Below are positions 420-24,941 of a stretch of 64,000 nt of DNA, one piece after another (positions within the stretch are counted from its first letter, which is position 1; each line of letters starts with the position of its first letter). A program made the translations under genes and the position numbers. A model generated the notes under the pieces. The model saw only the letters and a program-made list of their open reading frames with translations, searched no databases and was not told the DNA's origin. The stretch is taken from positions 24 through 64,023 of the forward strand of contig JAQWTI010000034.1 in the NCBI GenBank assembly GCA_029242745.1, read 5' to 3'. The DNA is from Acidimicrobiales bacterium. Lineage in GTDB: Bacteria > Actinomycetota > Acidimicrobiia > Acidimicrobiales > MedAcidi-G1.

Positions 420-920
420 CTACACCGACTCCGAAGTCAACTTCCAGCCTTCACCAATCTCTCCCATATGGCGAATGGTAAGGCCAATCTTGGTGAACTT
501 TCCGCAACCGTCTTTTACCTTCACCCGCATGGAGTAGGTCCCCCAGCCGATAATCGACTTGGATTCCTCTCCAGCGGTCCACAGGAAATATGCATCAATG
601 TGCACGGTGCCGTCACCGAGCCAACGGGGTGTCATATTCGTGACGAAATGTGACTTACGCGACGGGTCGGCGGCAAACGCCGACTGAAAGAAGTCGACAA
701 CGCTGTCGTAGCCCTCGACAGTCATTTCGCCCGCAGACAGGGCGACCGTGCGGTCGAGTTGTGAAGAGATTGCTGTTAGGTCTTGGGCGTCGACCGCAGC
801 CGCATAGTTGGCTAGGAGAATCCGGGCCGCCTCGGCCCCCTCTAGCGCTGCAAGTCGCTCTTCAATTCCATGATTTGCTTGATTTGTCCGACTACCGCCG
901 GTTTGCCGAAGGATGGCCAT
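420..920 (-). CDS. SnoaL-like / NTF2-superfamily protein
   Basis: 166-aa ORF. ANYAAAVDAQD...HFVTN...IDAYFLW layout is typical of SnoaL_4-like cone-fold proteins. Same strand and tightly spaced with its neighbours. Confidence 0.45.
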   Translation of the reverse strand: MAILRQTGGSRTNQANHGIEERLAALEGAEAARILLANYAAAVDAQDLTAISSQLDRTVALSAGEMTVEGYDSVVDFFQSAFAADPSRKSHFVTNMTPRWLGDGTVHIDAYFLWTAGEESKSIIGWGTYSMRVKVKDGCGKFTKIGLTIRHMGEIGEGWKLTSESV

Positions 921-945: not shown

Positions 946-1785
946 TTAGCGCACAACGTAGCCACCGTCCATCGGAAGGGTGTGGCCGGTGATCCAGCGA
1001 GCATCATCGGACGCTAGGAAGGCGACGACAGCTGCCACGTCTTCAGCGACTGGCCAGCCGGGGATCGGATTCCAATTTTCGCGCTCAGCCCTGAATCCTT
1101 CGGGATCTTCAGAAGTTTCGATGAATGCCTCTACCATCGGGGTGAGTACAGCGGTTGGCGCGATCGCGTTGACCCGAATACCTTGCTTTGCATACTCAAC
1201 TGCCGCTGACCGAGTTATGCCGGTCACACCGGCTTTGGAATACGAGTAGGCCGAGATGTTCAACTGAGCGGTGAGAGCGGCAGTGGACGACGTATTGATG
1301 ATGCTTCCCCCTCCGGACTTCAACATTGCGGTAATCCCGTGCTTGAGCACATAGAAAACTCCGTCGCCGTTCAGAGCGTTGACGGCTCGCCAGTTTTCCT
1401 CGGTGTACTCGTGCAGTGCCTGTTGTTCTCCGGCAATGCCGGCATTGTTGAAAATTATGTCGATCTTCCCAAAGTGCTGCACTGTGGTAGCAATGGCACG
1501 CTCGACTGCTGTGCCATCTGTGACGTCTACTTGAAGACTCAAGGCACCGGGTATAGCCGCAGCGACGCGATCCGCTTCGTCACTGTTGATGTCGACGATG
1601 GCAACATTGGCCCCTTCTTCTGAAAGACGTAGTGCCGTAGCTTCACCAAGACCAGCACCGCCACCGGTAATGAAGGCAACACGGTCTTCGAGCCGGTAGC
1701 ACGCCGCTTGTCGACGCCGAGAATCTCCTGTGCTGCGCATCAGGATCGATGGGTTTATCTGACCAGGTCGATCAGCGCCTGCCAT
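946..1785 (-). CDS. short-chain dehydrogenase/reductase (SDR)
   Basis: TGGGAGLG cofactor motif, NNAG, catalytic YSYSK. The true start may be the internal ATG at 1740. Confidence 0.85.
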   Translation of the reverse strand: MAGADRPGQINPSILMRSTGDSRRRQAACYRLEDRVAFITGGGAGLGEATALRLSEEGANVAIVDINSDEADRVAAAIPGALSLQVDVTDGTAVERAIATTVQHFGKIDIIFNNAGIAGEQQALHEYTEENWRAVNALNGDGVFYVLKHGITAMLKSGGGSIINTSSTAALTAQLNISAYSYSKAGVTGITRSAAVEYAKQGIRVNAIAPTAVLTPMVEAFIETSEDPEGFRAERENWNPIPGWPVAEDVAAVVAFLASDDARWITGHTLPMDGGYVVR

Positions 1786-2001
1786 ATTCTTTACTCCTTC
1801 GATCAGGACTCCGTGGTCAAGAAGCCAGCGCTGTTTGGACTACTAACTGCCGACTATTTGTTGGTTGTATGTCTGATTCTGTCTATCAAGTCACCCTCTG
1901 TGATACAGAATCGCATGTTTGACAAGAAAACAATGTTATAGCATAATCCGGCAAGGCTTGGCCTTTAATTTCTTGCAATCCATCGAGGGGGTAGTACGAC
2001 A

Positions 2002-3657
2002 GTGTTGCGTGCATCGAGAGGCTTCATCCGGATTTTGTTTGTTGCACTACTGGCGGTAGTGGCTGCTAGTTGTGGCAGTGACACTTCTAGTACGAGTAGC
2101 AGTTCGTCGGCTTCTGCTTCGACGGCTGCTCCGGCTACCACGGCTGCGGCTGCTCCGGCTACCACCGCTGCGGCTGCAAGTGATGCTCCTGCAGCTGAGG
2201 CTGAGGCTGAGGCTGCTCCAGCGGTCGAGTATGAGGCACCACCCGAAGACAGCAGTATCGGCTACGCCTGGTCGATTCCGTTGCGGAGCCTTGATCCACA
2301 TGCGACTCCATCAAACTTCGACCCGATCTATATCGGGTTGGCTTATGACACATTGATTGTCCGCGAGTTCGATGGGACGTTCTCACCGATGCTCGCCACG
2401 TCGTGGGAGTTCGTTGAACCAGACGTTCTGGAACTGAAGTTGCGCGAGGGGGTTACGTTCCACGGAGGCCGTGCCTTTGACGCAGAAGCCGTGGTTCTGA
2501 ACTTCGAGCGTGTCACCACAGGGGAGACCTCTACTCGAGGTGGTCCACTGGCCGCTGCCATAGCGTCGGTTGAAGCCGTCGATTCCCTGACGGTCCGAAT
2601 GACGTTGGGTGACGGGCCCGGTGTGATCTTTGGTGCCCTGTCGAGCATGGGTGGCATGATGATTAACCCCGATGCGTTCGATACGGATCTTTCCGTTACC
2701 GCTGACGGCACCGGTCCCTACCGGGTGACTCAGGTTCTAGCCGCCGAGTCGGTCACATTTAAGCGATTCGAGAATACCTGGGCGCCTGAAGACGCACGGG
2801 TCTCGAACCTGAAGATTGTGACCAACAAGGACAGCGCTCAGCGCGTGAACCTTCTTCTCACTGGCGATGTGGATGCCACCAATATTGACACCCACCAGAT
2901 TGAAATGCTGGAGGAGAAGGGATACACCACTCACTTCCGGGTCGGTGACGACGCATTCGTCATGCAACTCAATTGGGAGCGGCTCCCGGATGTCGCGGCT
3001 CGTCAGGCGATTGAGAGTTCGATAGATCGAGCCTTGATCCTTGAGGGGATCCACAAGGGTGTCAGTGAGGCCGGCGGGCAGGTCCAGACCATGGGTGATC
3101 CGGCGTACAACTCCGGTGTCAGTCCTGATCCCGATATCGCGAGGGCAATCCAACTTGCTGCGGATTCGGGTCTTGAGGGGTCGACTCTGAAGTTAATGAC
3201 TGCTGGTGTGCCGAACCTTGAGGCGTATGCCCAGGCGATTCAGCCAATGCTTGAGCAGTTGGGTGTGACGGTAGAGATCACGTTGGTGGAGTGGGGACAG
3301 TTGAACCCTGAGTGGGCCACTGGCAACTACGACCTCTCTCTCATCTACTTCACAGGCAACTCCGACCTTGCGCTCTCCTATGACGCTCTGCTCGGTGCTG
3401 ACTCGGCACTGAACCCTGCTGGCACGGCCCCGGGCGGAATCGATGCCCTAATTGCCGCGACCTTCTCGGAGACAGACCCCGAAGTGCGCACCCAGCAGTT
3501 CAGTGACTTGGCTGCGGCTGTCGACGAAGAGGCCGTTGTAGGGGTGTTGGTGCATCCCGTTCAGCCGATCGTCACGGCACCAGGCATCGAGATCAACGCT
3601 GACCGGCTACGCCTGTTCGGTGGATTCAACCTGCGAGGTATCCACCGAGTCGGCTAG
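2002..3657 (+). CDS. ABC transporter substrate-binding lipoprotein, family 5 (peptide/opine/nickel type)
   Basis: GTG start with GAGGGGG about 10 nt upstream. Signal peptide plus lipobox (LLAVVAASCGS), Ser/Thr/Ala-rich linker, then a family-5 SBP body (SLDPH..., ATSWEFVEPDVLELKLREGVTFHGG). Confidence 0.85.
   Translation: MLRASRGFIRILFVALLAVVAASCGSDTSSTSSSSSASASTAAPATTAAAAPATTAAAASDAPAAEAEAEAAPAVEYEAPPEDSSIGYAWSIPLRSLDPHATPSNFDPIYIGLAYDTLIVREFDGTFSPMLATSWEFVEPDVLELKLREGVTFHGGRAFDAEAVVLNFERVTTGETSTRGGPLAAAIASVEAVDSLTVRMTLGDGPGVIFGALSSMGGMMINPDAFDTDLSVTADGTGPYRVTQVLAAESVTFKRFENTWAPEDARVSNLKIVTNKDSAQRVNLLLTGDVDATNIDTHQIEMLEEKGYTTHFRVGDDAFVMQLNWERLPDVAARQAIESSIDRALILEGIHKGVSEAGGQVQTMGDPAYNSGVSPDPDIARAIQLAADSGLEGSTLKLMTAGVPNLEAYAQAIQPMLEQLGVTVEITLVEWGQLNPEWATGNYDLSLIYFTGNSDLALSYDALLGADSALNPAGTAPGGIDALIAATFSETDPEVRTQQFSDLAAAVDEEAVVGVLVHPVQPIVTAPGIEINADRLRLFGGFNLRGIHRVG
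2124..2171. repeat. 2 x 24-bp direct repeat (1 mismatch) in the low-complexity linker of the SBP, followed by (GCTGAG)x3 at 2194..2211
   Basis: ggctgctccggctaccacggctgc / ggctgctccggctaccaccgctgc read directly. Encodes AAPATTAA twice, in frame. Confidence 0.8.
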
Positions 3658-3721
3658 AAGGGTGTCGTCGAGTGTTTACTAGGCTCGACCGGGTGAGAAA
3701 TCGAAAAGGAGAGATACGTAG

Positions 3722-4021
3722 ATGACTGAAGATAAATATGCAGACTTTCCGACGCTTCTCGTACTTGAGGTGACAGGAATGTTGGATGCGGCCGTAGTGG
3801 TCGACGCCATATTTAAAGCGGCTGATATCTCATTGATAGAATCCCTACGAACAGGGGGAGGCCGAATTGCGATCTGGGCAGGCGGTGAGCTCAGCGCTAT
3901 AAACACGGCAACAGATGCGGCGTACCTCGCGTTGGCCGATTCGAGAGAGGCCCGATCGTGCATCTTCACCCTTCCCAGCGACGTGGTTCGTGAGTTCATG
4001 TCGATGTCGGTGAGCGCGTGA
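3722..4021 (+). CDS. bacterial microcompartment shell protein, BMC-H (single Pfam00936-type domain), copy 1
   Basis: AAAGGAGAG RBS about 10 nt upstream. LLVLEV...VDAIFKAADISL...RTGGGRIAIWAGGELSAINTATDAA matches the canonical BMC-domain order (edge Lys helix, G-G-G pore loop, GDVxAV-like helix). Confidence 0.8.
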   Translation: MTEDKYADFPTLLVLEVTGMLDAAVVVDAIFKAADISLIESLRTGGGRIAIWAGGELSAINTATDAAYLALADSREARSCIFTLPSDVVREFMSMSVSA

Positions 4022-4064
4022 CTAACGTGAAGAGGTACGGAATGACTCAGGAGAGGCGGATGTC

Positions 4065-4376
4065 GTGGCAAGTCAAGTGAGAGCTATCGGAGTTATCGAG
4101 GGTCGTTTGCTCCTTCCGTTGATTAACATTTCTAACGCAATGCGGAAAGTGGCCGATGTGTCCCTTCACCACCTCCAACCAATCGGGGGTGGGATCACTT
4201 TGGCGGTAATCAGCGGAGAGGTTGGCGCTGTGCGAGTTGCGCTTGAGACCGCTGACGCAGCGGCGGTGGAGTATGAAGATTCGACTCGAACCCAAGTCTT
4301 CGCCCATCCTGGTCCGGAGGTGTGGGAGTTGTTCGAGAACCTCGGCGTAAATGTTGATCTCACTCAGAGTCTGTAA
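4065..4376 (+). CDS. bacterial microcompartment shell protein, BMC-H, copy 2
   Basis: GTG start with AGGAG 11 nt upstream. AIGVIEG...SNAMRKVADVSL...PIGGGITLAVISGEVGAVRVALETA. Confidence 0.8.
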   Translation: MASQVRAIGVIEGRLLLPLINISNAMRKVADVSLHHLQPIGGGITLAVISGEVGAVRVALETADAAAVEYEDSTRTQVFAHPGPEVWELFENLGVNVDLTQSL

Positions 4377-4418
4377 TGAATGTCTATTCAATGACGAAAA
4401 ATGCGAGGACGGAAATCG

Positions 4419-4754
4419 ATGTTTGGTAACTCAGTCGCAGTCGGAATTATCGAGATAGACGGCTACGTGGCGATGGCTGCTGCGGTGGAAGCGATGTTCA
4501 AGGCGTCTGACGCCGAGTTCGTCGGATCGCAGCGATCAGGCGGTATCACTTTCTGTGGGGTAGTGCGGGGCGAAATCTCGGCCGTCGAGTATGCGCTCGA
4601 GGCAGGTGTCGAGGCTGCGCGTCAGGCTGATGCCAACGTGAAGACGTCGCTTCTTGTACGACCTGATGGTGACGTCGGAAGTCTTCTCAGCCGTCCTGGA
4701 GCGATGCGGAGAGTTTTCGCTGAAAGTGCCAACGAGACGGATGCCGGAGAGTAG
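4419..4754 (+). CDS. bacterial microcompartment shell protein, BMC-H, copy 3
   Basis: ORF opens at 4401, but the ATG at 4419 has GAGGA 10 nt upstream. AVGIIEIDG...VEAMFKASDAEFVG...RSGGITFCGVVRGEISAVEYALEAG. About 25-aa C-terminal tail. Confidence 0.8.
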   Translation: MFGNSVAVGIIEIDGYVAMAAAVEAMFKASDAEFVGSQRSGGITFCGVVRGEISAVEYALEAGVEAARQADANVKTSLLVRPDGDVGSLLSRPGAMRRVFAESANETDAGE

Positions 4755-4759
4755 TTGGT

Positions 4760-5044
4760 ATGAGGCTCGCACTTGTCAAAGGTATTGCTTGGCCCTCTCG
4801 GAAGATCGACGGAATCGAGGGCACGCGTATCGTGTTGGTTTCTCCGGCTGGTTCAACTGACGAGGGCGAAACTCTGGCAGCTGCAGATCCGTTGCAGGCG
4901 AGCGTGGGTGACTACGTGTTGATCACCGAGGGTCAGGCGGCTGGGGCGGCTCTGCAGCCGGGGAATCCGCGCGCCTACCCACTCGACGCAGCAATCGTGG
5001 CGATCATTCAACCGGACGAGGTCAGGCCTCGTCTATTGGACTGA
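4760..5044 (+). CDS. bacterial microcompartment vertex protein, BMC-P (EutN/CcmL, Pfam03319-type)
   Basis: GGAG 10 nt upstream and 5 nt after the BMC-H3 stop. MRLALVKG...GTRIVLVSP...VGDYVLITEGQAAG...PLDAAIVAII follows the EutN/CcmL consensus layout. Confidence 0.8.
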   Translation: MRLALVKGIAWPSRKIDGIEGTRIVLVSPAGSTDEGETLAAADPLQASVGDYVLITEGQAAGAALQPGNPRAYPLDAAIVAIIQPDEVRPRLLD

Positions 5045-5730
5045 TGGCACAGGTAAGAGTTGCAAGGGGGGGATCACCGGAGCGTCGACCTCATCTTGGC
5101 AGTGCAGTTTCGGCAGCAAACGCTGACGGCGTGCGGCGTGCACTTGTTGCAGGTGGCATGCGGATGCAGTGGAGTAAGACGGGCGGGAGCGATCTAGCGT
5201 CACATCAGCTCTTCGGTCCGGTTCGAGTGCTTAAGCATGCCGTTCATGACTTAGACGCTTGGCTGGAGCAATTCGTTGCTCTCGGTATTGGTCCTTGGTG
5301 GGTTACTCGGGGGCAAGCCCCAGAATCGTTTATCCACCGTGGCAAGCAGAGTGACACCAAGTTCGACTGGGGGCTGACATGGTCAGGTGATGTCATGTAT
5401 GAGCTGATTCAGCCTCTCGACGACCTACCGTCTCCTTACCGTGAGTTTTTGGACGCAGGTCGAGAAGGTCTTCAGCATGGAGCCTTCTATCCGCCCAATT
5501 TTGAAGCCGCAATCGAAGACCTACGTCGATCTGGAAAGACGCCGATCCTCGAAGGCCACTCGGGTGACGCCAAGTTTATGTACTTCGAAGGTCTCGGCTC
5601 GCCTCCCGAACCGATCGAACTTCAGTATCTACCCGAGGACGTGATAGCTAAACACCGTGCCCTGAAAGCGGTCTGCAATAATTGGGACGGCAGCGATCCT
5701 TTCCGTGGCCCACCGCGGAAATGGTGGTGA
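5044..5730 (+). CDS. VOC-family (glyoxalase/bleomycin-resistance/dioxygenase fold) metalloenzyme with N-terminal extension
   Basis: ATG overlaps the BMC-P stop (TGATG at 5042..5046). VOC metal-ligand pattern: VLKHAVHDLD, MYELIQP, GLQHGAFY, PIELQY. About 55 aa precede the VOC core. Confidence 0.7.
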   Translation: MAQVRVARGGSPERRPHLGSAVSAANADGVRRALVAGGMRMQWSKTGGSDLASHQLFGPVRVLKHAVHDLDAWLEQFVALGIGPWWVTRGQAPESFIHRGKQSDTKFDWGLTWSGDVMYELIQPLDDLPSPYREFLDAGREGLQHGAFYPPNFEAAIEDLRRSGKTPILEGHSGDAKFMYFEGLGSPPEPIELQYLPEDVIAKHRALKAVCNNWDGSDPFRGPPRKWW

Positions 5731-6703
5731 TCTCCGAGCAGGGGGTTTTGTCGTTAGTTTGATCCGGGTTGCCTTTGCGCGGCTCCTGGCCGCGATTCCG
5801 ATGATGATTCTCGTATCGCTGATCATCTTCTCTATACCGTATTTCATCCCCGGCGACCCTGCGTTCACGATCGCTGGCCCAAATGCCACGATGGACGACA
5901 TCGCTCGAATTCGATCTGATCTGGGTTTGGACCGCCCCATACCGGGCCAGTACATCGCATGGCTGGGCAATGCAGTCACCCTTGACTTCGGCGACTCCTA
6001 CCTGGTCGGACGAGACGTCCGTACCATGATTGGTGAACGGATGGAGGTGATGCTGTCACTTGCGCTCCTCAGCACCCTGTTTGCCGGCCTGATTGGCATC
6101 CCGCTCGGCATCATTGCTGCATCGAGAATCGGCGGCGTGCGGGATCGTCTCGCAGTCGGATCGGCGTCTATGGGAGTCGCTATACCAAATTATTGGCTTG
6201 CGGCGATCCTTGTGACATACCTCGCGGTCGAGTGGGGTTGGTTTCCTGCGGCAGGCTATGTGCGCATAGGCGATGACCCAGGCCAATGGCTTTGGCATTT
6301 GATTTTGCCGACAATCGCACTCGGGGCGATCTCCGCTGCTGAGGTCACCCGGCAGACGCGCGGCATGATGGCACAAACCATGAACCTCGATTACATCCGC
6401 ACGGCGCGGATGAAGGGGTTGCCGCCTCGAATAGTAATCGGCAAGCACGCGCTTAAGAACGCAGCGATACCTGTCATCACAGCCCTCGGCCTGCAACTGA
6501 CCATTGTTCTTGGAGGGTCGGTAATTGTTGAACAGATTTTTGGGATGCCTGGCCTTGGAGAATTGGCGATCACTGCAGTTCTGGGTCGTGACATCCCAGT
6601 AATTCAGGGAATCGTTCTGCTGACTACTGTGGTGGCGGTCAGCACCAACCTTCTTGTAGACATCGTTACGTCGCACTTGGATCCACGAGTGGTCATCTCA
6701 TGA
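5705..6703 (+). CDS. ABC transporter permease (DppB/OppB-like)
   Basis: N-terminal LIRVAFARLLAAIPMMILVS and a multi-TM body with the EAA-like loop (DYIRTARMKGL). The likely real start is the TTG at 5759, where homologs begin; the ORF opens at GTG 5705. Confidence 0.85.
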   Translation: MAHRGNGGDLRAGGFVVSLIRVAFARLLAAIPMMILVSLIIFSIPYFIPGDPAFTIAGPNATMDDIARIRSDLGLDRPIPGQYIAWLGNAVTLDFGDSYLVGRDVRTMIGERMEVMLSLALLSTLFAGLIGIPLGIIAASRIGGVRDRLAVGSASMGVAIPNYWLAAILVTYLAVEWGWFPAAGYVRIGDDPGQWLWHLILPTIALGAISAAEVTRQTRGMMAQTMNLDYIRTARMKGLPPRIVIGKHALKNAAIPVITALGLQLTIVLGGSVIVEQIFGMPGLGELAITAVLGRDIPVIQGIVLLTTVVAVSTNLLVDIVTSHLDPRVVIS

Positions 6704-7623
6704 CGGTGGTTCCTTCAGAGGGTGCAGCCGGGTCAACTACCGGAGAGGCGACATTCCTAAGGAAACGATATGAGTCTCCTTCGAGACGATTTGCTCGGCG
6801 CTTACTCTCTCAAAAGGTCGCGACAGCATCAGGGGTGATTCTGATTCTCGTTGTCCTGTCTGCGATATTTGCCCCACTTCTTGCCCCGCTTGATCCCAAC
6901 AAGACCGATCTCCGAAACACCCTTTTGCCCCCCGGCTCTGCTGATTTCCTACTAGGCACCGACTATCTCGGGAGAGACGTTCTCAGCCGACTGTTGTTTG
7001 CTGGGCGAGTGTCGTTAGTCGCAGCGGTCCAGGCAGTCAGTGTTGGCCTGATTCTCGGGGTCGCCCCCGCCTTGGTTGCCGGGTATGTCGGGCGGTGGTG
7101 GGACTGGCTACTTATGAGATTTACGGACGCGCTGTTGGCCTTCCCTCCACTGATCCTCGCTATTACGGTTATAGGGATACTCGGTACCGGTCTGACCAAC
7201 GCGATGATTGGAGTCGGGATCATCTTTGCTCCAAGATTTGCTCGGATCACCCGGTCCGCCGTGTTAAGCGTCCGAGAAGAGACTTTCGTCGAAGCCGCTA
7301 AAAGTATGGGACTCAGTCAACCCCGAATCATCTGGCGACACGTGCTTCCGCACCTCCTTTCGCCATTGGTCGTGACTGCCACAGTGTTGGCAGGAATGGC
7401 GATGATTATCGAGGCTGGTTTGAGTTTCATCGGTCTCGGAGTCCAAGTCCCCCAAGCGAGCTGGGGATCAATGCTGTCGACGGCATATCGGTTTATCAGG
7501 GTTTCACCAACACTAATTCTTTGGCCAGGTTTGGCCATCATGATCACCGTGCTCAGCGTCAACCTTTTGGGTGATGGCATTCGTGACGCTCTCGGCCGTG
7601 AAGTGCGAGACATGTCCTCATGA
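6700..7623 (+). CDS. ABC transporter permease (DppC/OppC-like)
   Basis: ATGA overlap with the preceding permease. LGTDYLGRDVLSR motif and FVEAAKSMGLS EAA loop. Confidence 0.85.
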   Translation: MTVVPSEGAAGSTTGEATFLRKRYESPSRRFARRLLSQKVATASGVILILVVLSAIFAPLLAPLDPNKTDLRNTLLPPGSADFLLGTDYLGRDVLSRLLFAGRVSLVAAVQAVSVGLILGVAPALVAGYVGRWWDWLLMRFTDALLAFPPLILAITVIGILGTGLTNAMIGVGIIFAPRFARITRSAVLSVREETFVEAAKSMGLSQPRIIWRHVLPHLLSPLVVTATVLAGMAMIIEAGLSFIGLGVQVPQASWGSMLSTAYRFIRVSPTLILWPGLAIMITVLSVNLLGDGIRDALGREVRDMSS

Positions 7624-8624
7624 CCGTCCAGGACTCTGCCACTACAGCGCTCAGGGTCAAAGAGCTGTGCGTAGATGTCGCCACACCGGAGGGCTGGGCT
7701 ACCGTCGTCGAGGACGTGAGCCTCGCTGTTGATGTAGGTGAGATCCACGGTCTAGTGGGGGAGTCGGGAAGCGGAAAGTCGCTTACGGCCATGGCCATCA
7801 TGGGCCTGATCACCCATTCCCAGAGTGCTCGAGTTACCGGGGGTGAGGTGCTGCTTGGTGACGTCGATCTGCTGAAACTGTCCAATCGAGACCTCCGCAG
7901 ACACCAAGGCAAGGACCTTGCCATGGTGTTTCAAGAACCAATGACGAGTCTGAACCCAGCATTCACCGTTGCTGATCAGATCGGAGAGTCCATCCGCTAC
8001 CACCTCGGCGCATCGCGAAAAGAGGCCAGGGAACGCTCGATAGAACTTTTAGAGGAGGTCGGTATCGCCGACGCTCGTCGGCGCTGCAACGACTACCCAC
8101 ATCAGTTCTCTGGCGGAATGCGTCAACGGGTGATGCTGGCCGTGGCCCTCGCCTGTGAACCGAGACTTCTAATCGCTGATGAACCAACGACTGCGCTCGA
8201 TGTCACAGTTCAGGCACAGATGCTCGAACTTATTCGGTCACTAGTAGAACGTCATGGGATGGCGGTAATTTTTATTACCCACGATCTCGGCGTAATAGCG
8301 GAGATATGTGACCGAACGACAGTCTTTTACGCTGGCCAAGTGATCGAGAGCGGTCTCGTAGGAGAGGTCATTAAGGGGCCGCGTCATCCATATACCGAGG
8401 GGTTGTTGCGCTCGGTTCCCGCTGACGACGATCTTCCTTTGTGGTGGATCGACGGATCACCGCCCCTCCCGGGACAAGTGTCATCAGGGTGCAGGTTCAG
8501 CCCACGTTGCGAGTACAGCAAGAATGAGTGCGACACCCACGCTGTTCCGTTACGCCTGAGTGCTGATGGGCGAGCAATTAGATGCGCGCTCGCTGATGAT
8601 CTCTCTCTGAACGGGAGAGACTGA
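7620..8624 (+). CDS. ABC transporter ATP-binding protein (DppD/OppD-like)
   Basis: ATGA overlap. Walker A GESGSGKS, signature FSGGMRQR, Walker B LLIADEPTTALD, C-terminal oligopeptide-type Cys motif (GCRFSPRC). Confidence 0.9.
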   Translation: MTVQDSATTALRVKELCVDVATPEGWATVVEDVSLAVDVGEIHGLVGESGSGKSLTAMAIMGLITHSQSARVTGGEVLLGDVDLLKLSNRDLRRHQGKDLAMVFQEPMTSLNPAFTVADQIGESIRYHLGASRKEARERSIELLEEVGIADARRRCNDYPHQFSGGMRQRVMLAVALACEPRLLIADEPTTALDVTVQAQMLELIRSLVERHGMAVIFITHDLGVIAEICDRTTVFYAGQVIESGLVGEVIKGPRHPYTEGLLRSVPADDDLPLWWIDGSPPLPGQVSSGCRFSPRCEYSKNECDTHAVPLRLSADGRAIRCALADDLSLNGRD

Positions 8625-8626
8625 CG

Positions 8627-9679
8627 TTGACCCAGGTCCTCGAAGTTTCTGAAATGAGTGTTTCGTTTCCCAGACGCTCCGGCCTGTTGGGGAAGTCGCA
8701 ACCGTTACGCGTCGTGGAGAACGTATCGTTTGAGGTGGGTAAGGGCGAAGTGGTGGCCCTTGTTGGCGAGTCTGGCTCGGGAAAGTCCACCATTGCTCGG
8801 GCTGTTCTGCGTTTGTTGCCAATCGACAATGGGCGGATAACTCTCGCAGATGTGGATATCACGACGCTGTCACAACGAGCCCTGCGGCCGCACCGTCGGA
8901 ACGCACAGCTTGTTTTCCAGGACCCCTATTCATCGCTCGATCCATCGATGACGGCTATTGAGATTGTCGAAGAACCCCTTCGTGGGTTTGCTATGAGTCG
9001 TGAGGAGCGCCTGCGCTCCGCCCAAGAGTTGCTTGCCAGCGTCGGCCTCGCCGGGGTTGAAGGCCGCTACCCCTATGAATTCTCAGGTGGTCAACGACAA
9101 CGGATCGCTATTGCTAGAGCCCTTGCTCCCCGGCCGGCGTTGATCATCTGCGATGAACCTGTATCCGCTCTGGATCTGTCAACACAGAACCAGATCATCT
9201 CGCTACTTGACTCTCTTCGGCAGAGTTTGGGAGTTTCTTATCTATTCATTAGCCATGATCTATCCGTCGTGCGTCGTATCGCTGATCGAGTTTTGGTGAT
9301 GTACGCCGGCGAGATTGTGGAAGAGGGACCGACGGAGCGAGTGTTTCGCGATCCTGTCCACCCCTACACCCTGGCTCTTCTTTCTGCCGTACCTGCAGTT
9401 GTAGGTGACCGGTCAAAGCATGCCAAGCGAATTGTCTTGGAAGGCGACCTTCCCGTGCCCGGAGCGCCTCCACCGGGATGCCGATTCCATACACGGTGCC
9501 CGTTTGCTATGGATGTCTGTCGCTCGGAGGTTCCTGCATGGACAGAGTTTGATCACGGCGTATCGGGAAGGTGTCATCTGCACACCTCCGGGTCAACACT
9601 AGGTTTCTCCGGTCTAACTCAGTTTGCAGAAGATGCGATGGCATCTACGGACAGAGACCGAGGTCAGACATCTATTTAA
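8627..9679 (+). CDS. ABC transporter ATP-binding protein (DppF/OppF-like)
   Basis: Starts 2 nt after the previous stop. GESGSGKST, FSGGQRQR, LIICDEPVSALD, GCRFHTRCP. Confidence 0.9.
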   Translation: MTQVLEVSEMSVSFPRRSGLLGKSQPLRVVENVSFEVGKGEVVALVGESGSGKSTIARAVLRLLPIDNGRITLADVDITTLSQRALRPHRRNAQLVFQDPYSSLDPSMTAIEIVEEPLRGFAMSREERLRSAQELLASVGLAGVEGRYPYEFSGGQRQRIAIARALAPRPALIICDEPVSALDLSTQNQIISLLDSLRQSLGVSYLFISHDLSVVRRIADRVLVMYAGEIVEEGPTERVFRDPVHPYTLALLSAVPAVVGDRSKHAKRIVLEGDLPVPGAPPPGCRFHTRCPFAMDVCRSEVPAWTEFDHGVSGRCHLHTSGSTLGFSGLTQFAEDAMASTDRDRGQTSI

Positions 9680-9705
9680 CCGGTGAGACTAAGGATGGAT
9701 TTGTA

Positions 9706-10110
9706 GTGGTACCGGCTGAGTTGTCGGACCTTTTGGACCGGCCGCTTGTAGCGGCTCTGGCCACCGAACGCCCTGACGGCACGCTGCAATGCAATCCAAT
9801 GTGGTTCCGCTTCGATGGAACTGAGATAAAGATGAGCCACACATCAACGAGGCAGAAGATTCGCAACTGGGATGCAAACACGGCTGTGAGCTTGTGCATC
9901 ACGGATCCTGCGAACACTTTTCGATATGTGGAGGTTCGTGGTTTCGTAACTGGTTTGGCGAGCGACCTTGATGCACAATTCCACCGAGAGCTTCGTGTCC
10001 GGTACGGCATGGACGCAACCAACGTTCCTGATGCCGCTGAACGTGTGGTCGTCACTATCCGGATTACCTACATCGGTGGTCGGGAGATGGCAGATCAGAC
10101 GAAAACATGA
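9706..10110 (+). CDS. PPOX-class (pyridoxamine-5'-phosphate-oxidase-fold) FMN/F420-dependent enzyme
   Basis: ORF opens at 9571 inside the ATPase gene. The GTG at 9706 has AAGGA about 10 nt upstream. LLDRPLVAALATERPDGTLQCNPMWF...VSLCITDP...YVEVRG is typical of split-barrel PPOX/F420 family proteins. Confidence 0.65.
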   Translation: MVPAELSDLLDRPLVAALATERPDGTLQCNPMWFRFDGTEIKMSHTSTRQKIRNWDANTAVSLCITDPANTFRYVEVRGFVTGLASDLDAQFHRELRVRYGMDATNVPDAAERVVVTIRITYIGGREMADQTKT

Positions 10111-10462: not shown

Positions 10463-11680
10463 CTAGTGCGGTTTTGATGCGATGACGCCGGAGAGTTCGA
10501 GAGCGTTCAGTTCCTCATCGGACATTCCGAGAAGGCCGCCAAGTACAGCTGCATTGTGTTCGCCGAGAGCCGCCGGCTGATAATTGTCGATGGGCAGTGG
10601 GTCGGTGCTCTTGATGGGAAAGCCGGGGATTGTGACGTGTCCGGCAAGCGGGTCGTCGACAATGCGCACCATCTTGCGTTCGACGAAATGGGGATGTACA
10701 ACGATCTGGCTGGGGGTGAGAACGGGTCCAGCAGGGACGCGTGCCGATGTCAGTGCGTCGAGTACCTCATTATCTGTCTCGAAAGTCGCCATCCAGGTTT
10801 CGATGATCTCAGTCAGTTCATCGCGATGTTTAATGCGGTCAGGATTGGACCTGAACCGGTCGTCTTCTCCTAGTTCCGGTCTCCCTAACGCGGACCACAG
10901 ATTCGCCATCTGCGCTTCGGTGGACAAGATGACGATCCATCCGACGGGACCACGGAATGCGCCTGCTGGTGACAGGGTTGGAAAGTGTTGGCCCTGGCGA
11001 ATCGGCTCGGGCCCATCAGGGTCCATCGAGACGGTGTGAATGGACATGTCGTGAAAGTGCAACAGGGCATCAACCATGGAGATATCGAGGTGGGTGCCTC
11101 GGCTGGTTCGTTCCCTGTGGTACAGCGCATGACCGATAGCGCCAAAGGCATGCGCACCAGCGTTAGTGTCGGCGACTCCGATCCCGGCGATGGTGGGTGG
11201 CCCATCGGGATCACCGGTCATGTGCATGAGGCCACTCATGGCCTGTGCCACCAAGTCGAAGCAAGGACGCTCAGAGAATGGCCCAGTCTGTCCAAACCCG
11301 GAGATCGACACCATAATCAGGTCCGGTTTGATTCTCCGAAGATCCTCGTACCCGAGGCCTTTATGCGCCATCACCCCTGGGCTGAAGTTCTCGACCAACA
11401 CGTCGATGCGTGCGATCAGGGCCTTGATGATTGCGATCCCGTCATCGGTGTTGAGGTCCAGACACACGCTGCGCTTACCACGATTCTGCTGAATGTGCGC
11501 GCCTGCTCGACGATTGATGCGTGGGCGGTTTGACCGATTCGGATCTCCGTAGGGGGGTTGCTCGATCTTGATTACATCGGCGCCCAACTCCACCAACATG
11601 CGGGTGCAGGCAGGTCCTGCTAGATACCGGGTGAGGTCGAGCACGGTAACGCCCTCCAACCATCTCCGATCGTCGCTCAC
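10463..11680 (-). CDS. family III CoA-transferase (CaiB/BaiF type)
   Basis: GVTVLDLTRYLAGPACTRMLVELGADVIKIE N-terminus. The GTG start overlaps the upstream ACAD stop (GTGA at 11680..11677). The ORF track extends it to 11791. Confidence 0.85.
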   Translation of the reverse strand: MSDDRRWLEGVTVLDLTRYLAGPACTRMLVELGADVIKIEQPPYGDPNRSNRPRINRRAGAHIQQNRGKRSVCLDLNTDDGIAIIKALIARIDVLVENFSPGVMAHKGLGYEDLRRIKPDLIMVSISGFGQTGPFSERPCFDLVAQAMSGLMHMTGDPDGPPTIAGIGVADTNAGAHAFGAIGHALYHRERTSRGTHLDISMVDALLHFHDMSIHTVSMDPDGPEPIRQGQHFPTLSPAGAFRGPVGWIVILSTEAQMANLWSALGRPELGEDDRFRSNPDRIKHRDELTEIIETWMATFETDNEVLDALTSARVPAGPVLTPSQIVVHPHFVERKMVRIVDDPLAGHVTIPGFPIKSTDPLPIDNYQPAALGEHNAAVLGGLLGMSDEELNALELSGVIASKPH

Positions 11681-12804
11681 GCTGCTGCCCCTGTTCGAGG
11701 TTCGCGTGGAAGCTTTAAGACTCGCTCTCCGAGGATATTGCGCATGATTTCTGACATTCCGCCCTGAATTGTGTACGCCGACGCGTAGCAAATAGCGTTG
11801 GGCACGTCATCGCCAACCATGGCAGCTGGTCCGAGCACCTCTGCTGCGAACCGTGCTACCCGTTGCTCGTGCTCTGTACAGAATAGTTTAGTGCCGGCGC
11901 TGAAGTCGGTTGGGCCCTGCTGGAGAGCGCCTCTGTAGACCATGAGACGCCCCAGATGGTACCCAGACTCAATAGTTGCGATCTCTTGACGCACCCTCGG
12001 GTCAGAGCGGTCGGCATGCTCGAGGGCAAGGTCGTAGAGCGGTCGATTCGATACAAGCCGGTCGATACCTCCTCGTTCGTGGGCCAACTGGACCATGGTT
12101 TGTTTGAAGGCGGCACCTTCGACACCAACGAGATTTTCGACCGGCACCTCAACATCGGTGAAAAATACTTCGCAAAAGTGCTTGTTGCTAACCATGTCCA
12201 CGACAGGGCGCACTTCGATCCCAGCGAGGTCCATGGGAACGATTAGCTCACTCACCCCCTCATGAGGTGGCCCGGAGGTATCCGTACGACAGATCAAATA
12301 GCAGTATGTCGCTTCTGCTGCGAGACTCGTCCAGATCTTCTGGCCGTTAACTACAAAAACCGAACCCACACGTACCGCAGAGGTACTCAGTGTGGCCAAG
12401 TCGGATCCGGCGTCGGGTTCGCTCATACCGATGCACCACGTCGCTTCGCCCGAGAGTATCCCCGGAAGGAATTCTGTCTTCTGATCGTTGGTGCCATAGG
12501 TGTAAATAGCGGGGCCCATCTGGCGATCGGCTATCCAACTCGCCGCAATCGGCGCCCCTGCGCTGATCATCTCCTCGGCCATGATGACGCGTTCGATGCC
12601 TGGTCGATTGCCACCTCCGACCTCCCGGGGCCAGGTCATACCGATCCAACCTTCTGACGCCAATATCCGGGCGAAGTCCTTCGAGTAGCCGTTGATCCAA
12701 GAGTCGTGCCACTTGCCATATTCGACGACGCCGTGTTGGGCGATTTCTCGGGCTCGGTGTTGGAGATCCCTCCATTCGGGAGGCATTGCGAACTCGAGAC
12801 TCAT
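11677..12804 (-). CDS. acyl-CoA dehydrogenase
   Basis: GMSEPDAGSD and C-terminal YTIQGGMSEIMRNILGE motifs. 4-nt overlap with the upstream amidohydrolase gene. Confidence 0.85.
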   Translation of the reverse strand: MSLEFAMPPEWRDLQHRAREIAQHGVVEYGKWHDSWINGYSKDFARILASEGWIGMTWPREVGGGNRPGIERVIMAEEMISAGAPIAASWIADRQMGPAIYTYGTNDQKTEFLPGILSGEATWCIGMSEPDAGSDLATLSTSAVRVGSVFVVNGQKIWTSLAAEATYCYLICRTDTSGPPHEGVSELIVPMDLAGIEVRPVVDMVSNKHFCEVFFTDVEVPVENLVGVEGAAFKQTMVQLAHERGGIDRLVSNRPLYDLALEHADRSDPRVRQEIATIESGYHLGRLMVYRGALQQGPTDFSAGTKLFCTEHEQRVARFAAEVLGPAAMVGDDVPNAICYASAYTIQGGMSEIMRNILGERVLKLPREPRTGAAA

Positions 12805-13829
12805 GAGATTCGGTAGACCCGAGTCGCAGTGCCGGAGAAGAGGTCATCTTGTTCGGCATCGGTGTAGTCGGCGGCAATGATTTGAAACGAGTTCCAGATT
12901 ACTGGGTACGACAGCGTTTGTCGGTCGACAGGAAAGTTCGATTCGAACATGCATCGCTCAGATCCGAACAGATCGATGCAGAATCGAAGGTCGTCAGCCC
13001 AGTAGTCAGCAACTTCGCTTGAACTTGGTGGTGCTTGGCGGGTCGACCAACCGGTGGCGAAGTAATCATCCATTCCCACCCCGCCGAGTTTTAGAAATAC
13101 GTTAGGGCTGTCTGCAACACGCCGCATGCCAGCCCTCCAAGCCGCATGGGCCTTGCTGCGGATCCGTCCGTACGGTCCAACCGCCAACGGTCCTCCAAGA
13201 TGATTGAGGACGATGACTAGGTCGGGAACCGTCGTGGCCAAAGTAGCGACCTCTGGCAACTGGGGGTGATACAACCACGCATCGAAACTCAGCCCCATCG
13301 ATGCGAGTGTTCGAGCGGCAGACCGGAACTCGCTTGCGGCCATCATGAGCGGGGTCACCTTCCTGTGGCCGTTGCGGATGTCGCCGCTCGCGTCCCATGC
13401 GGTCGTGTACCGGATCCCCCGAAAGCGGCCACCACTCGCGTCGATGTGTGCGACGAGTACATCGGCGATGCCTCGTCCGAGCATCATGTCAGCATGGCCG
13501 ATGATTCCAGCGAGAATCGGACCGCCTCCAGTGTCGGTTTGATCCGCCTCTCTGGCTGCGAACGTGGTCTCCCCAATGGGCCAGAAATGCTCGGAGCGTT
13601 CCTTGTCGTAGTTGGCTCGACACTCCACAAAGATGGTTTTAACCACATTGTGGGTGCCGGTTATGTCATCGAGCAACTGCGGGGCAAGGTACGTGCTTCC
13701 ACCTCGATCCCAGAGATGATGGTGTGGATCAACGATTACGCGATCAGGATCGATTGCCCGCTCCTGGCGCAAGGCAAGCCATTCGAACCGGTCGAGTTCC
13801 AAGACGTCCTTCCCAACTTTCCGGTCCAA
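12801..13829 (-). CDS. amidohydrolase-2 family metal-dependent hydrolase (lactonase/decarboxylase-like)
   Basis: VDPHHHLWD N-terminal metal motif, NHLGGP, and ...MFESNFPVD C-terminal motif typical of PF04909-type proteins. Confidence 0.75.
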   Translation of the reverse strand: MDRKVGKDVLELDRFEWLALRQERAIDPDRVIVDPHHHLWDRGGSTYLAPQLLDDITGTHNVVKTIFVECRANYDKERSEHFWPIGETTFAAREADQTDTGGGPILAGIIGHADMMLGRGIADVLVAHIDASGGRFRGIRYTTAWDASGDIRNGHRKVTPLMMAASEFRSAARTLASMGLSFDAWLYHPQLPEVATLATTVPDLVIVLNHLGGPLAVGPYGRIRSKAHAAWRAGMRRVADSPNVFLKLGGVGMDDYFATGWSTRQAPPSSSEVADYWADDLRFCIDLFGSERCMFESNFPVDRQTLSYPVIWNSFQIIAADYTDAEQDDLFSGTATRVYRIS

Positions 13830-13854
13830 CGAATCTAGTGCGACATAATACTAT

Positions 13855-15000
13855 GTGAGCATGTTGAATGATTTAACGAGCTTGTCGGAACGCCATCGAA
13901 GTGTCGTTAGTGAGGCGAGAACTCTTGCGGCGAGTGTCGAGGCTGTGGCGATGGAGGCAGATGAGAGTTCGACGCTGCACCCGGTGGTGGTCGACGCCCT
14001 GCGCACTAGCACCCTCAGCGAACTCATGGTGCCAGCCGCGTACGGCGGTCGCTTCGAAAAGATCGACCCTCTGGCTGTTTGCGTGGCACGTGAGGCGTTG
14101 ATGAAGACCTCCGCACATCTTGATTCTCTGTTTGCACTCCAAGGAATCGGTAGCTACGCCATTTCACGGGCCGGCACTGCTGCGCAACGCTCCGAGTGGT
14201 TGCCGTTAGTCGCGCGCTGTGAAGCAATCGCGGCGCTGGCTTTGACAGAACCGGTTGCGGGGTCCGACTTGAAGGCTATTTCCACAACGGCAACTGAACG
14301 CAACGGTGAACTCGTGATCAGCGGGTCCAAGTCGTTCATCTCGAATGCCGGGGCGGCTGCGTTCTACACCACGCTTGTCAGGGAGGGTGATGGTTATTCG
14401 CTTGTGCTCGTTCCTGCTGATACGGCCGGTCTCACGATCTCACCATCTCCTGAGATCATTGCGCCTCACGTGCTAGGTGATCTGGTATTCGACGAGGTTG
14501 TCCTTCCTGCTACGGCTCGACTTGGTGAACCGGGGACAGCGTGGAAGCACGTGCTCGCTACTTTGGCTGTGTTCCGCGTTTCGGTTGCGGGTGCGGCAGT
14601 TGGGTTGATGGAAGGTGCGCTCGAAGAGGCGGTTCGACATACGCGTGAACGTGAGCAGTTCGGAAAGCCGCTCTCCCGGCAGGGGCCCGTTGCAGGCATG
14701 CTGGCTGACTCGTGGGCTGACCTTGAATCTGCCCGCCTGCTGACCCGGCAGGCTGCGGCCATGGCGGTAGACAACCCGGCCGACGCCCTGGATCACAGTT
14801 CTCTTGCGAAGCTCCATGCGACCGAGTCGGCAGGGCGGGTGGTCGATCGCTGTGTGCAGTGCATGGGCCGGTGGGGTCTTATTCGAGGATCCAAGATCGA
14901 AAAGTATTATCGACAGGCGCGGCCGATGCGTTTGTACGAAGGAGCGTCAGAGGTGCTGCGGCTGGGGGTTGCCGCCCGGCTGACTAGGGAGGTCGACTGA
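13855..15000 (+). CDS. acyl-CoA dehydrogenase
   Basis: LTEPVAGSDL and YEGASEVLRLGVA motifs. Start is GTG 13855 or ATG 13861. Confidence 0.85.
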   Translation: MSMLNDLTSLSERHRSVVSEARTLAASVEAVAMEADESSTLHPVVVDALRTSTLSELMVPAAYGGRFEKIDPLAVCVAREALMKTSAHLDSLFALQGIGSYAISRAGTAAQRSEWLPLVARCEAIAALALTEPVAGSDLKAISTTATERNGELVISGSKSFISNAGAAAFYTTLVREGDGYSLVLVPADTAGLTISPSPEIIAPHVLGDLVFDEVVLPATARLGEPGTAWKHVLATLAVFRVSVAGAAVGLMEGALEEAVRHTREREQFGKPLSRQGPVAGMLADSWADLESARLLTRQAAAMAVDNPADALDHSSLAKLHATESAGRVVDRCVQCMGRWGLIRGSKIEKYYRQARPMRLYEGASEVLRLGVAARLTREVD

Positions 15001-15752: not shown

Positions 15753-16072
15753 TGGCTCTACCAGACGATGGAGCACGAAATAGCTCTTGAATCTGCGTGG
15801 CCATCGGACGGCCCACAGATTGCCTTTTCGTTTCGGAACGACTAAAGCGGTGATTGCATCCCTGCTCTGAACGCCGACGGAACGGGTCTCTCTTCGATCG
15901 GCTAACGGGGTGGCCCTACGTTCGGTCTTGTGGCCCTTGAGTACGCGAGCAGTGACGAGGGGTGTTCGAGTTCCGTCCAACATGAGACGAGTGTGCGGCG
16001 GCAGTCCTGCTTGACAGCAACTCGCGTGGCTTGGAAACTGAGGCCAGTCGATTGAGGGGTAAGTTTTTGAAA

Positions 16073-19860: not shown

Positions 19861-19864
19861 GCCG

Positions 19865-24720: not shown

Positions 24721-24941
24721 TCTTCAGGGGAAAGACTGGAATTAATTTGATCCACGAGTTCGCCGCGGAGACCGCATCTTCAGGGCTGAGATTTTAGATC
24801 GAGTATCGCCTCAATGTCTTGAATCGGTCCAGTTTTGGCCTTTTCCTATGGCCCCTGGGCCGAGAAAGCCTCAGAGCGCTGCCACTGCTAATGTGCGCAA
24901 TGTTGTTTGGGGCGAGAGGCTGGAGAAACAAAACTGTGGAC

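Follow-up and report, generated by a model that had tools for sequence, protein, structure and literature searches.

What does a set of shell genes for a bacterial microcompartment (BMC) do in a marine-type member of the Acidimicrobiales, and what would such a compartment enclose? The question is raised by a stretch of 64,000 nt from contig JAQWTI010000034.1 (assembly GCA_029242745.1, Acidimicrobiales bacterium, MedAcidi-G1), called the window below, in which an earlier reading of the letters alone, the original prediction, had placed a complete, minimal and strongly diverged shell gene set at 3722-5044. BMC function is inferred from the genes that travel with the shell genes. The main new result, missed by the original prediction, is that these shell genes are embedded in the operon of a Dpp-type ABC importer. 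On balance we think it probable that the locus is a functional, co-transcribed shell operon of an uncatalogued BMC type.

Shell genes inside an importer operon

The gene set consists of three BMC-H paralogues (H1, H2 and H3) and one BMC-P gene (P), all on the plus strand:

3722..4021, plus strand: H1, BMC-H, 99 residues, with the edge lysine and pore loop RTGGGR; PF00936 at 35.4 bits, E 1e-08
4065..4376, plus strand: H2, BMC-H, 103 residues, with the edge lysine and pore loop PIGGGI; PF00936 at 51.3 bits, E 1.2e-13
4419..4754, plus strand: H3, BMC-H, 111 residues, with the edge lysine and pore loop RSGGI; PF00936 at 54.8 bits, E 9e-15
4760..5044, plus strand: BMC-P, vertex pentamer protein; PF03319 (EutN_CcmL) at 60.9 bits, E 1.7e-16

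The Pfam check that the original prediction had proposed gave three matches to PF00936 and one to PF03319, all four above the gathering cut-offs (24.5 and 25 bits, respectively), and the BMC-P match spans model positions 1-82 of 83 (hmmscan). The four consecutive shell-protein ORFs and their count of three BMC-H plus a single BMC-P stand as predicted, and four successive shell-family matches on one strand cannot be chance. The genes are recognisable to standard annotation, NCBI already naming the BMC-P an EutN/CcmL family protein, and the novelty lies in the locus type, not in the individual genes. The non-permuted single-domain layout proposed for H1-H3 is borne out by alignments to the solved BMC-H proteins PduA, EutM, HO-5815 and CsoS1, which are collinear and begin at residue ~3-13 in both partners, and the BMC motifs quoted in the prediction are present in the ORF sequences. 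The hexamer-edge lysine aligns in H1 (IFKAAD), H2 (MRKVAD) and H3 (MFKASD), and in every orthologue. Pairwise identity is only 30-35% among the three paralogues and to a canonical BMC-H. The best relatives of H3 in the Protein Data Bank (PDB) are HO-5815 (52 bits) and MSM0272 of the RMM compartment, and H3 is the most canonical paralogue and probably the main facet protein. The PDB relatives of BMC-P include CcmL, EutN and MSM0273 (E ~1e-5), with 6owf_C and the HO pentamers also among the closest. H1 is the most divergent paralogue; all 12 of its 12 family members match PF00936, and the family profile matches 63 solved BMC-domain chains in the non-permuted register over residues ~10-79, mostly BMC-H (PduA, EutM, CsoS1, HO-5815) and also BMC-T, for example PduT. 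An hhalign comparison of the H1 and H3 families gave a probability of 95.8%.

Low Pfam scores and the lack of core enzymes nearby could be read as signs that a BMC locus, once acquired horizontally, is decaying or has lost its function. The expression and selection data speak otherwise. Shine-Dalgarno (SD)-like sites are found ahead of all four genes (AAGGAGAG, AGGAGAGG, GAGGACGG and CGGAGAG), and the intergenic gaps of 43 (H1-H2), 42 (H2-H3) and 5 nt (H3-P) fall in the predicted range of 5-43 nt. The predicted H3 start at 4419 is preferred to the upstream ATG at 4401, since the orthologue in contig L007 has no upstream start codon and those in L093 and L096 start at the corresponding site. 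The GC content of the shell genes and that of their third codon positions (GC3) are host-like. Pairwise Nei-Gojobori comparisons with three orthologous loci (L093, L001 and L007; dS 0.35-1.7) gave dN/dS of 0.06-0.075 for H1, 0.09-0.10 for H2, 0.05-0.10 for H3 and 0.09-0.14 for BMC-P, and this strong purifying selection (0.05-0.14 overall) excludes decay of the shell genes. Orthologous H1/H2/H3/P sets are also kept across relatives down to 32-60% identity. The earlier description of genes that look expressed rather than decayed agrees with the intact ORFs, the SD-like sites, the dN/dS values and these sets in distant relatives; the remnant explanation is almost certainly wrong, the selection and synteny data having in effect refuted it. 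A recent horizontal insertion was likewise rejected, as there is no tRNA or mobile-element signal and no compositional anomaly.

The genes around the shell set complete an operon with the order SBP5 - H1 - H2 - H3 - P - VOC - DppB - DppC - DppD - DppF - F420-PPOX, where SBP5 is a substrate-binding protein (SBP) and VOC an enzyme of the vicinal oxygen chelate superfamily. The features that join the four shell genes are:

1919..1947, plus strand: candidate sigma-70-like promoter just 5' of the operon, TTGACA-17-CATAAT, an 11/12 consensus match
2002..3657, plus strand: SBP_bac_5 substrate-binding lipoprotein, first operon gene; PF00496 at 180.6 bits
5044..5730, plus strand: VOC-superfamily enzyme (Glyoxalase_4, PF13669) with a methylmalonyl-CoA-epimerase-like fold
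5801..6703, plus strand: DppB-like ABC permease; PF19300 and PF00528 in orthologues; 94% identical to that of L001
6700..7623, plus strand: DppC-like ABC permease; PF12911 and PF00528 in orthologues; synteny kept
7620..8624, plus strand: DppD-like ABC ATPase; PF00005 and PF08352 in orthologues; synteny kept
8627..9679, plus strand: DppF-like ABC ATPase; PF00005 and PF08352 in orthologues; synteny kept
9679..10110, plus strand: F420-dependent PPOX-class oxidoreductase, last conserved operon gene; PF01243; TIGR03618 at 97.2 bits (cut-off 79)

The promoter-like site is a consensus match only, and the number of such sites in the region equals the shuffle expectation; no convincing terminator was found within the operon. 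The SBP has an N-terminal signal sequence with a lipobox-like VAASC. The DppB-like ORF opens at 5705, and its likely start at ~5801 is taken from orthologue gene calls; the PPOX ORF opens at 9571 and its start is uncertain.

Related contigs (~20, all metagenomic) were recovered by protein look-ups and a scan of JGI metagenomes and mapped by tblastn. The order SBP5-H1-H2-H3-P-VOC-DppBCDF-PPOX is kept in these ~20 contigs (L001-L007, L089, L090 and L092-L100), down to identities of 52% for VOC, 37-54% for P and 32% for H2, with the SBP gene directly 5' of H1 in nine of them (L003, L007, L089, L090, L093, L094, L096, L097 and L098) and the PPOX gene 3' of DppF in L001, L089, L090, L092, L093 and L096. 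The divergent loci L089, L096 and L090 are only 52-67% (VOC), 51-64% (H1), 32-55% (H2) and 37-71% (P) identical to the window. These loci also keep a trio of genes for a short-chain dehydrogenase/reductase (SDR), a SnoaL-like protein and a NIPSNAP-domain protein, along with genes for an AMP-binding CoA ligase, a small PF00903 glyoxalase, a GntR/FCD regulator, an acyl-CoA dehydrogenase (ACAD)-SDR pair, a 3-hydroxyacyl-CoA dehydrogenase and an enoyl-CoA hydratase (ECH). In the window, the stretch 10463-15752 was assigned a CoA-transferase, an Amidohydro_2 protein, the ACAD and the second SDR through the Pfam families of L001 and NCBIfam; the pair kept near the locus in distant relatives is

13855-15000, plus strand: acyl-CoA dehydrogenase (Pfam family via L001)
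15000-15752, plus strand: second SDR (Pfam family via L001)

and its orthologues (62% and 55-58% identical) adjoin the locus in L089 and L096. The best NCBIfam matches of the pair, acryloyl-CoA reductase and cyclohexane-1-carbonyl-CoA dehydrogenase, are sub-threshold, and the ACADs resemble cyclohexane-carbonyl-, pimeloyl- and acryloyl-CoA enzymes below threshold only (NCBIfam). Two of the contigs show irregularities of their own. L093 carries two tandem SBP5 copies 5' of H1 (2154-3560 and 3618-5024), a duplication or an assembly repeat, and in L001 the downstream CoA-transferase and acyl-CoA dehydrogenase are each in two pieces (6849-8173 and 8062-9185), for which frameshifts or assembly errors could be the cause; they may be pseudogenes.

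The position of shell genes between SBP and permease genes is unusual, and it could mean that the shell proteins make up sheets, tubes or a scaffold working alongside the ABC importer, for instance a membrane-proximal platform that channels substrate to the VOC enzyme. BMC-H proteins expressed alone are known to make sheets and tubes (PMC10100840), and H1 and H2 have no PRPH contact motif. The P(R/K)PH lateral-contact motif is missing from all three paralogues, which have LPSD (H1), HPGP (H2) and VRPD (H3) in its place. The motif is typical, not obligatory, as H_lipstickRed of the ARO compartment also goes without PRPH (PMC10470539, PMC8217296). Against a scaffold stand the edge lysine, kept in all three H proteins, and the conservation of BMC-P (dN/dS 0.09-0.14), whose sole known role is the capping of icosahedral vertices. 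We regard an importer-bound scaffold as quite improbable and a closed shell as the better account; closure by hexamer and pentamer alone has a known precedent in the HO, GRM2 and synthetic beta-carboxysome shells.

The VOC enzyme and other candidate cargo

The VOC gene is the first candidate for cargo. Its ATG overlaps the BMC-P stop codon (TGATG), and its product carries two terminal features:

5044-5208, plus strand: N-terminal extension of the VOC enzyme, residues 1-55, in shell-linked homologues only
5704-5727, plus strand: C-terminal tail RGPPRKWW of the VOC enzyme, in shell-linked homologues only

Homologues with at least 52% identity to the VOC enzyme are all shell-linked, and none of the 41 loci of homologues with at most 48% identity contains shell genes. 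In the alignment the ~55-residue N-terminal extension and the RGPPRxWW tail are confined to shell-linked VOCs, and six tail residues (G222, P223, P224, R225, W227 and W228) show no variation in any of the 14 shell-linked sequences. The extension has a dN/dS of 0.12-0.16 and is therefore translated. In an AlphaFold2 (AF2) model built from a 45-sequence alignment, the core (residues 53-223) has a pLDDT above 90, residues 1-52 and 224-228 are disordered, and no helix is found before residue 53; as modelled, the extension does not look like a classical amphipathic-helix encapsulation peptide. Because of the translational coupling, the strict co-occurrence with shell genes and the shell-specific terminal extensions, we propose the VOC enzyme as the signature cargo of the compartment. 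The nearest non-BMC homologue (48% identity, L091 10001-10786) adjoins a cytochrome P450 gene and an IS481-family transposase gene on a contig that also carries AMP-ligase and SnoaL_4 genes, and which may resemble a shell-less ancestral pathway.

A Foldseek search of the PDB with the VOC model returned 3gm5 (a putative methylmalonyl-CoA epimerase, MCE) at the top, followed by the MCEs of M. tuberculosis, P. shermanii, S. coelicolor and human, and further down the domains of 4-hydroxyphenylpyruvate dioxygenase (HPPD) and hydroxymandelate synthase (HMS), and glyoxalase I; a profile search of the PDB sequences agrees with this ranking. The window VOC shares its core fold with MCE/3gm5-type proteins (Foldseek probability 1.0, TM-score to target 0.65-0.77) at an identity of just 18-25%, and it differs from MCE by the disordered N-terminal extension and the RGPPRxWW tail. 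Against the MCE equivalog TIGR03081 it scores 15.5 bits at a cut-off of 115, which leaves it outside that group. E120, H145 and E192, fully or almost fully conserved in the 45 homologues, fall in the alignment on three of the four positions that hold metal ligands in MCE, the first of these three being Gln in that enzyme. The window VOC and MCE/3gm5-type proteins also have neighbouring CoA-ester enzymes in common; genes for ECH, family-III CoA-transferase or ACAD often neighbour the non-BMC VOC homologues, and these neighbourhoods, as read from sequence annotation, fit CoA-ester or enolate chemistry. No NCBIfam equivalog matches the shell proteins, the SBP or the VOC enzyme, so that the substrate is not assignable.

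Further candidate cargo is encoded immediately 5' of the operon on the opposite strand, by the trio kept also in L089, L090, L093, L094 and L096:

93..413, minus strand: NIPSNAP-domain protein (PF07978), trio member beside the shell operon
420..920, minus strand: SnoaL_4-like protein, candidate third cargo; PF13577 from residue 25, with ~18 extra N-terminal residues (MAILRQTGGS)
946..1785, minus strand: SDR oxidoreductase, candidate second cargo; PF13561 and PF00106, with a ~30-residue N-terminal extension containing ILMRST

The SDR extension precedes a complete domain, which begins at residue 35 in Pfam and at residues 27-36 in 25 of the 25 best NCBIfam SDR models. Across five diverged orthologues (including those of L093, L096, L089 and L090) the extension is variable except for one island, with the versions ILMRST, IRMRST, MVFRSS and ARVRST. 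Two islands in the VOC extension resemble it, GGxxΦRS[ST] and GGΦxΦR[SL]S, exemplified by GGAFRSTT, VSFRSSS, VTIRSS, VRLRSTT, VGLRSTS and MEVRLSS. The SnoaL-like extension, seen on aligning the shell-linked orthologues with one non-BMC SnoaL_4 protein, starts with MAILRQTGGS, MTIFRHT, MIIRYRT or MKHRSTS. The ΦRS[ST]-like motif common to the VOC, SDR and SnoaL termini may be a non-canonical targeting signal, an idea drawn from the alignments that we put forward tentatively and regard as somewhat unlikely.

Relation to known compartments

The original prediction called the shell proteins strongly diverged, and the low Pfam scores, the low identities to other BMC loci and the scarcity of close homologues all agree. 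The best identity to the shell proteins of 80 other listed BMC loci (GTDB species representatives) is at most 31% for H1, 41% for H2, 38% for H3 and 42% for P, and over all searches the highest identities to any non-family shell protein found are 31-46%. In NCBIfam they show only sub-threshold likeness to the EutM, CsoS1, CcmO, CcmL and EutN equivalogs, which places them outside every named orthologous group. Among 5.8 billion proteins, a word-indexed search brought up no more than 8 close clusters for BMC-P, and 11 clusters for H1. When BMC-P was run exhaustively with HMMER against 1.84 billion 50%-identity representatives, 55 matches fell below 1e-3 and only one genuine match below 1e-10, P0081 (52% identity), which is the BMC-P of L097. 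The formal top match of this deep search, P0080, was rejected as a eukaryotic CUB-repeat protein, a false positive from summed repeats. The nearest non-family BMC-P relatives are 40-46% identical (P0082 at 46%, P0083 at 44%). P0083, the nearest of those traced to a locus, sits in an EUT-like one (L141) with genes for phosphotransacylase (PTAC), EutH and EutQ, and P0009 (38%) was set aside because it belongs to an unrelated aldolase-type locus. A scan of GTDB species representatives with the BMC-P alignment found, among the matches listed, generic BMC-P loci of at most 43% identity and no family member. In another deep-search match, P0116 (187 residues), the last 39 residues match BMC-P residues 56-94 (LDAAVVAILQPDEVKPRLLD) at 62% identity; its N-terminal part is unrelated, and it may stem from chimeric assembly or a frameshifted gene call, or be a real fusion. 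The Acidimicrobiia harbour at least two kinds of BMC, since another metagenome-assembled genome of this class carries a canonical trio (L070 140-1407; a 208-residue BMC-T-like protein, a BMC-H with ARPH and a BMC-P) that is unrelated to the studied family, its BMC-P being 35% identical to that of the window.

The core genes of an ordinary metabolosome are missing from the window. Pfam was run on 60 ORFs of the 64 kb, namely the smaller ones near the locus together with all listed ORFs of at least 180 aa, less, among the latter, those that evidently overlap or run antisense and the last ORF (62740-63414). Among these 60 ORFs there is no aldehyde dehydrogenase (AldDH, PF00171), no PduL (PF06130) or Pta PTAC, no BMC-T and no further BMC gene, and AldDH, PTAC, BMC-T and further shell genes were not found in the flanks of L089, L090 and L096 either; PTAC is present, in contrast, in the non-family BMC-P locus L141. 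The absence of BMC-T stated in the original prediction holds for the 60 scanned ORFs. Its word "complete" holds in part: H and P are both present without BMC-T in 64 kb, and the statement is good for that length only, because a satellite locus elsewhere in the genome is possible. The locus could on that account belong to an ordinary aldehyde metabolosome with its core AldDH, PTAC, alcohol dehydrogenase and possibly BMC-T at satellite loci, the VOC, SDR and transporter genes being accessory. The catalogue types ACI and FRAG always keep AldDH on a satellite locus (PMC8217296), the data cover 64 kb of the genome, and other Acidimicrobiia carry canonical shell genes (L070). However, AldDH and PTAC are missing from the 64 kb and from ~10 kb around three divergent loci, the VOC subfamily with its shell-specific termini is strictly shell-linked, which is the pattern of a signature enzyme, and the shell proteins are not close to any metabolosome type sampled. 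We consider a satellite-locus metabolosome unlikely.

Text searches of the 2021 catalogue of 68 BMC types and of its full type descriptions (PMC8217296) found no glyoxalase, PF13669, PF00903, PF00496, PF07978, PF13577, PF01243, ABC, acyl-CoA dehydrogenase, short chain, epimerase or Acidimicrobi, and the published literature, searched for a VOC-, glyoxalase- or Acidimicrobiales-associated BMC, gave nothing relevant. The closest analogue in logic is the ARO compartment of Micromonosporales and Pseudonocardiales (PMC8217296, PMC10470539). Both loci are actinobacterial, use BMC-H and BMC-P only, without BMC-T (PMC10470539), and have remote shell proteins with one fairly canonical H and the other(s) without PRPH; neither shows an evident canonical encapsulation peptide, and in both the signature enzyme adjoins the shell genes and has a BMC-specific N-terminal extension (30-35 residues in the ARO dioxygenase beta subunit; PMC10470539). 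In ARO the H paralogues number two, and the locus further encodes two ring-cleaving dioxygenase subunits of pfam02900, a CoA-independent semialdehyde dehydrogenase and an IclR regulator, whereas the window locus has three H paralogues, a VOC/MCE-like enzyme, no AldDH and an importer around the shell genes, and its relatives have a GntR/FCD regulator. The pfam02900 dioxygenase, the semialdehyde dehydrogenase and IclR were found neither in the scanned window ORFs nor in the related loci, so by its gene content the window locus is not ARO.

A looser kinship with ARO can still be imagined, in which the VOC enzyme acts as an extradiol-type or HPPD-like dioxygenase that makes an unstable ring-fission product inside an H+P shell. 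Extradiol dioxygenases belong to the VOC superfamily, the structural matches include HPPD and HMS domains, and the wider window is rich in Rieske/VanA oxygenases; ARO compartments themselves are actinobacterial and lack BMC-T and a canonical encapsulation peptide, with remote shell proteins and an extended dioxygenase beta subunit (PMC10470539). Yet the best structural matches of the VOC enzyme are single-domain MCEs, not two-domain extradiol dioxygenases, the neighbours in the locus are CoA-ester enzymes, the H paralogues number three against two, neither a pfam02900 dioxygenase nor an aminomuconate-semialdehyde dehydrogenase is present, and in place of IclR the relatives have GntR/FCD. We judge a ring-cleaving compartment of this kind to be quite unlikely.

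The other comparisons also leave the window locus apart. By the naming rule of the catalogue it would fall into the catch-all 'BUF' class, having no AldDH. BUF2 (Micromonosporales), the one BUF type compared, and by description, is likewise actinobacterial, without AldDH and without a detectable canonical encapsulation peptide; its BMC-Tdp, its methyltransferase-like protein and the 260-residue CDxxDxCSCGC protein between its shell genes are absent from the window locus, which does not resemble it. The H+P-only shells of HO, GRM2 and the synthetic beta-carboxysome appear among the PDB matches; the HO shell with its H+P derivatives, the GRM2 shell (6qn1) and the synthetic beta-carboxysome (6owf/6owg) are ~35-45% identical to the window's proteins and belong to aldehyde or CO2-fixing organelles with other cargo. 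The RMM aminoacetone/aminopropanol BMC is actinobacterial, has its MSM0272 and MSM0273 among the best PDB matches and runs a pathway with an SDR-type dehydrogenase, but its BMC-Tdp proteins, class-III aminotransferase/phospholyase, kinase and AldDH are absent here.

Several other genes of the window lie outside the conserved locus. Four adenosine-deaminase-family (PF00962) paralogues (16031-17092, 22555-23586, 23692-24720 and 24819-25961), three of them in tandem, adjoin a Bmp/PnrA-type ABC transporter (26045-30805), an unusual expansion that points to the salvage or breakdown of varied purine or aminated-heterocycle compounds. A GCV_T-family aminomethyltransferase gene stands beside Rieske/VanA-type oxygenase components (17151-18407 on the minus strand, 18769-21625 and 30824-31816), one of which is fused to a DmmA-like reductase with a 2Fe-2S domain; these genes look like a demethylation module outside the conserved BMC locus. 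A sulfate-activation cluster (52465-55902) encodes a CysD-like protein with a PAPS-reductase domain, a CysN-APS-kinase fusion and a second, stand-alone APS kinase.

Proposed function and its meaning

For the functional shell operon that we favour, the following scheme can be drawn, its shell part from what is established about BMCs. Three diverged BMC-H proteins would tile the facets, H3 probably as the main tile and H1 and H2 in specialised roles, and BMC-P would cap the vertices, so that the shell would close from H and P only, with no BMC-T. Because the shell genes are embedded in a Dpp/Opp-type importer operon, the importer for the substrate and the organelle would be made together. The signature cargo would be the VOC enzyme, with an MCE-like fold and a conserved Glu-His-Glu set of putative metal ligands, and the SDR and the SnoaL-like enzyme encoded beside the operon would probably be co-encapsulated. 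In a speculative course of the chemistry, the SDR oxidises the imported compound in the lumen to a confined reactive carbonyl or enolate intermediate, which the VOC and SnoaL enzymes may isomerise, epimerise, rearrange or cleave, and the product may then pass to the CoA-ligase, acyl-CoA dehydrogenase, hydratase and 3-hydroxyacyl-CoA dehydrogenase outside the shell. Cargo could be recruited by short motifs in the disordered termini, not by a canonical amphipathic-helix encapsulation peptide; the motifs proposed are ΦxΦR[S/x][S/T] in the N-termini of VOC (two copies), SDR and SnoaL, and the RGPPRxWW tail of VOC. That the imported substrate is a carboxylate-rich or alicyclic acid is a guess, since the likenesses of the SBP (to NikA, CntA and GsiB in NCBIfam) and of the ACADs are weak or sub-threshold. 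A reading of the locus as a pathway for dimethylsulfoniopropionate or acrylate, to which the GCV_T gene of the window and the AMP-ligase, ACAD and ECH genes of the locus might point, was rejected, as GCV_T lies outside the conserved locus and SDR, SnoaL and VOC have no place in such a pathway.

A number of findings weigh against a functional shell of a new type and against the targeting proposal that goes with it. H1 and H2 are without the PRPH lateral-contact motif, and the motif Arg of H3 is kept only in the window's subclade, the position being His in L096, L097, L098 and L089 and the residue lost in L090. The single-chain AF2 model of H1 (12-sequence alignment) was poor, at a pLDDT of 49.6, and was left unused, so that the fold assignment of H1 comes from sequence profiles only. 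The negative result for AldDH, PTAC and BMC-T covers 64 kb of a genome in which a satellite locus is possible, and the term 'uncatalogued' is based on locus content and on searches of text. In the VOC family the first His ligand typical of MCE and glyoxalase I lacks conservation, which makes even the VOC reaction class uncertain, and a CoA-ester substrate for VOC would leave the passage of bulky acyl-CoAs through the shell unexplained. The VOC islands are degenerate in the window's own subclade (VRVARGGS and GGMRMQWS), the N-terminal motif they share with the other proteins was drawn up after inspection of just 5-8 independent sequences for each family, and a loosely written regular expression was rejected as a motif detector as it also matches a few spurious antisense ORFs. 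The ARO studies likewise left the entry of cargo without a canonical encapsulation peptide unexplained (PMC10470539).

Set against the intact, conserved and selected shell operon, these points leave the shell itself probable on balance, as stated at the outset. The fuller proposal, a new functional class of BMC without an AldDH core, with its own importer and with MCE-like VOC, SDR and SnoaL cargo brought in by linear motifs for the catabolism of carboxylate-rich or alicyclic compounds in marine Acidimicrobiia, is a possibility that we hold only tentatively and think rather unlikely in its entirety. Marine Acidimicrobiia are abundant, mostly uncultured heterotrophs, and the proposal, if true, would extend BMCs to them and would widen the short list of non-metabolosome BMCs by a new chemistry. 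To our knowledge, essentially all described metabolosomes use an amphipathic-helix encapsulation peptide, which targeting by linear motifs would here replace; the shell-specific termini of VOC and SDR are a directly testable candidate for a new cargo-targeting signal. A four-gene H+P shell with three very divergent hexamers would also be an attractive orthogonal chassis for engineering.

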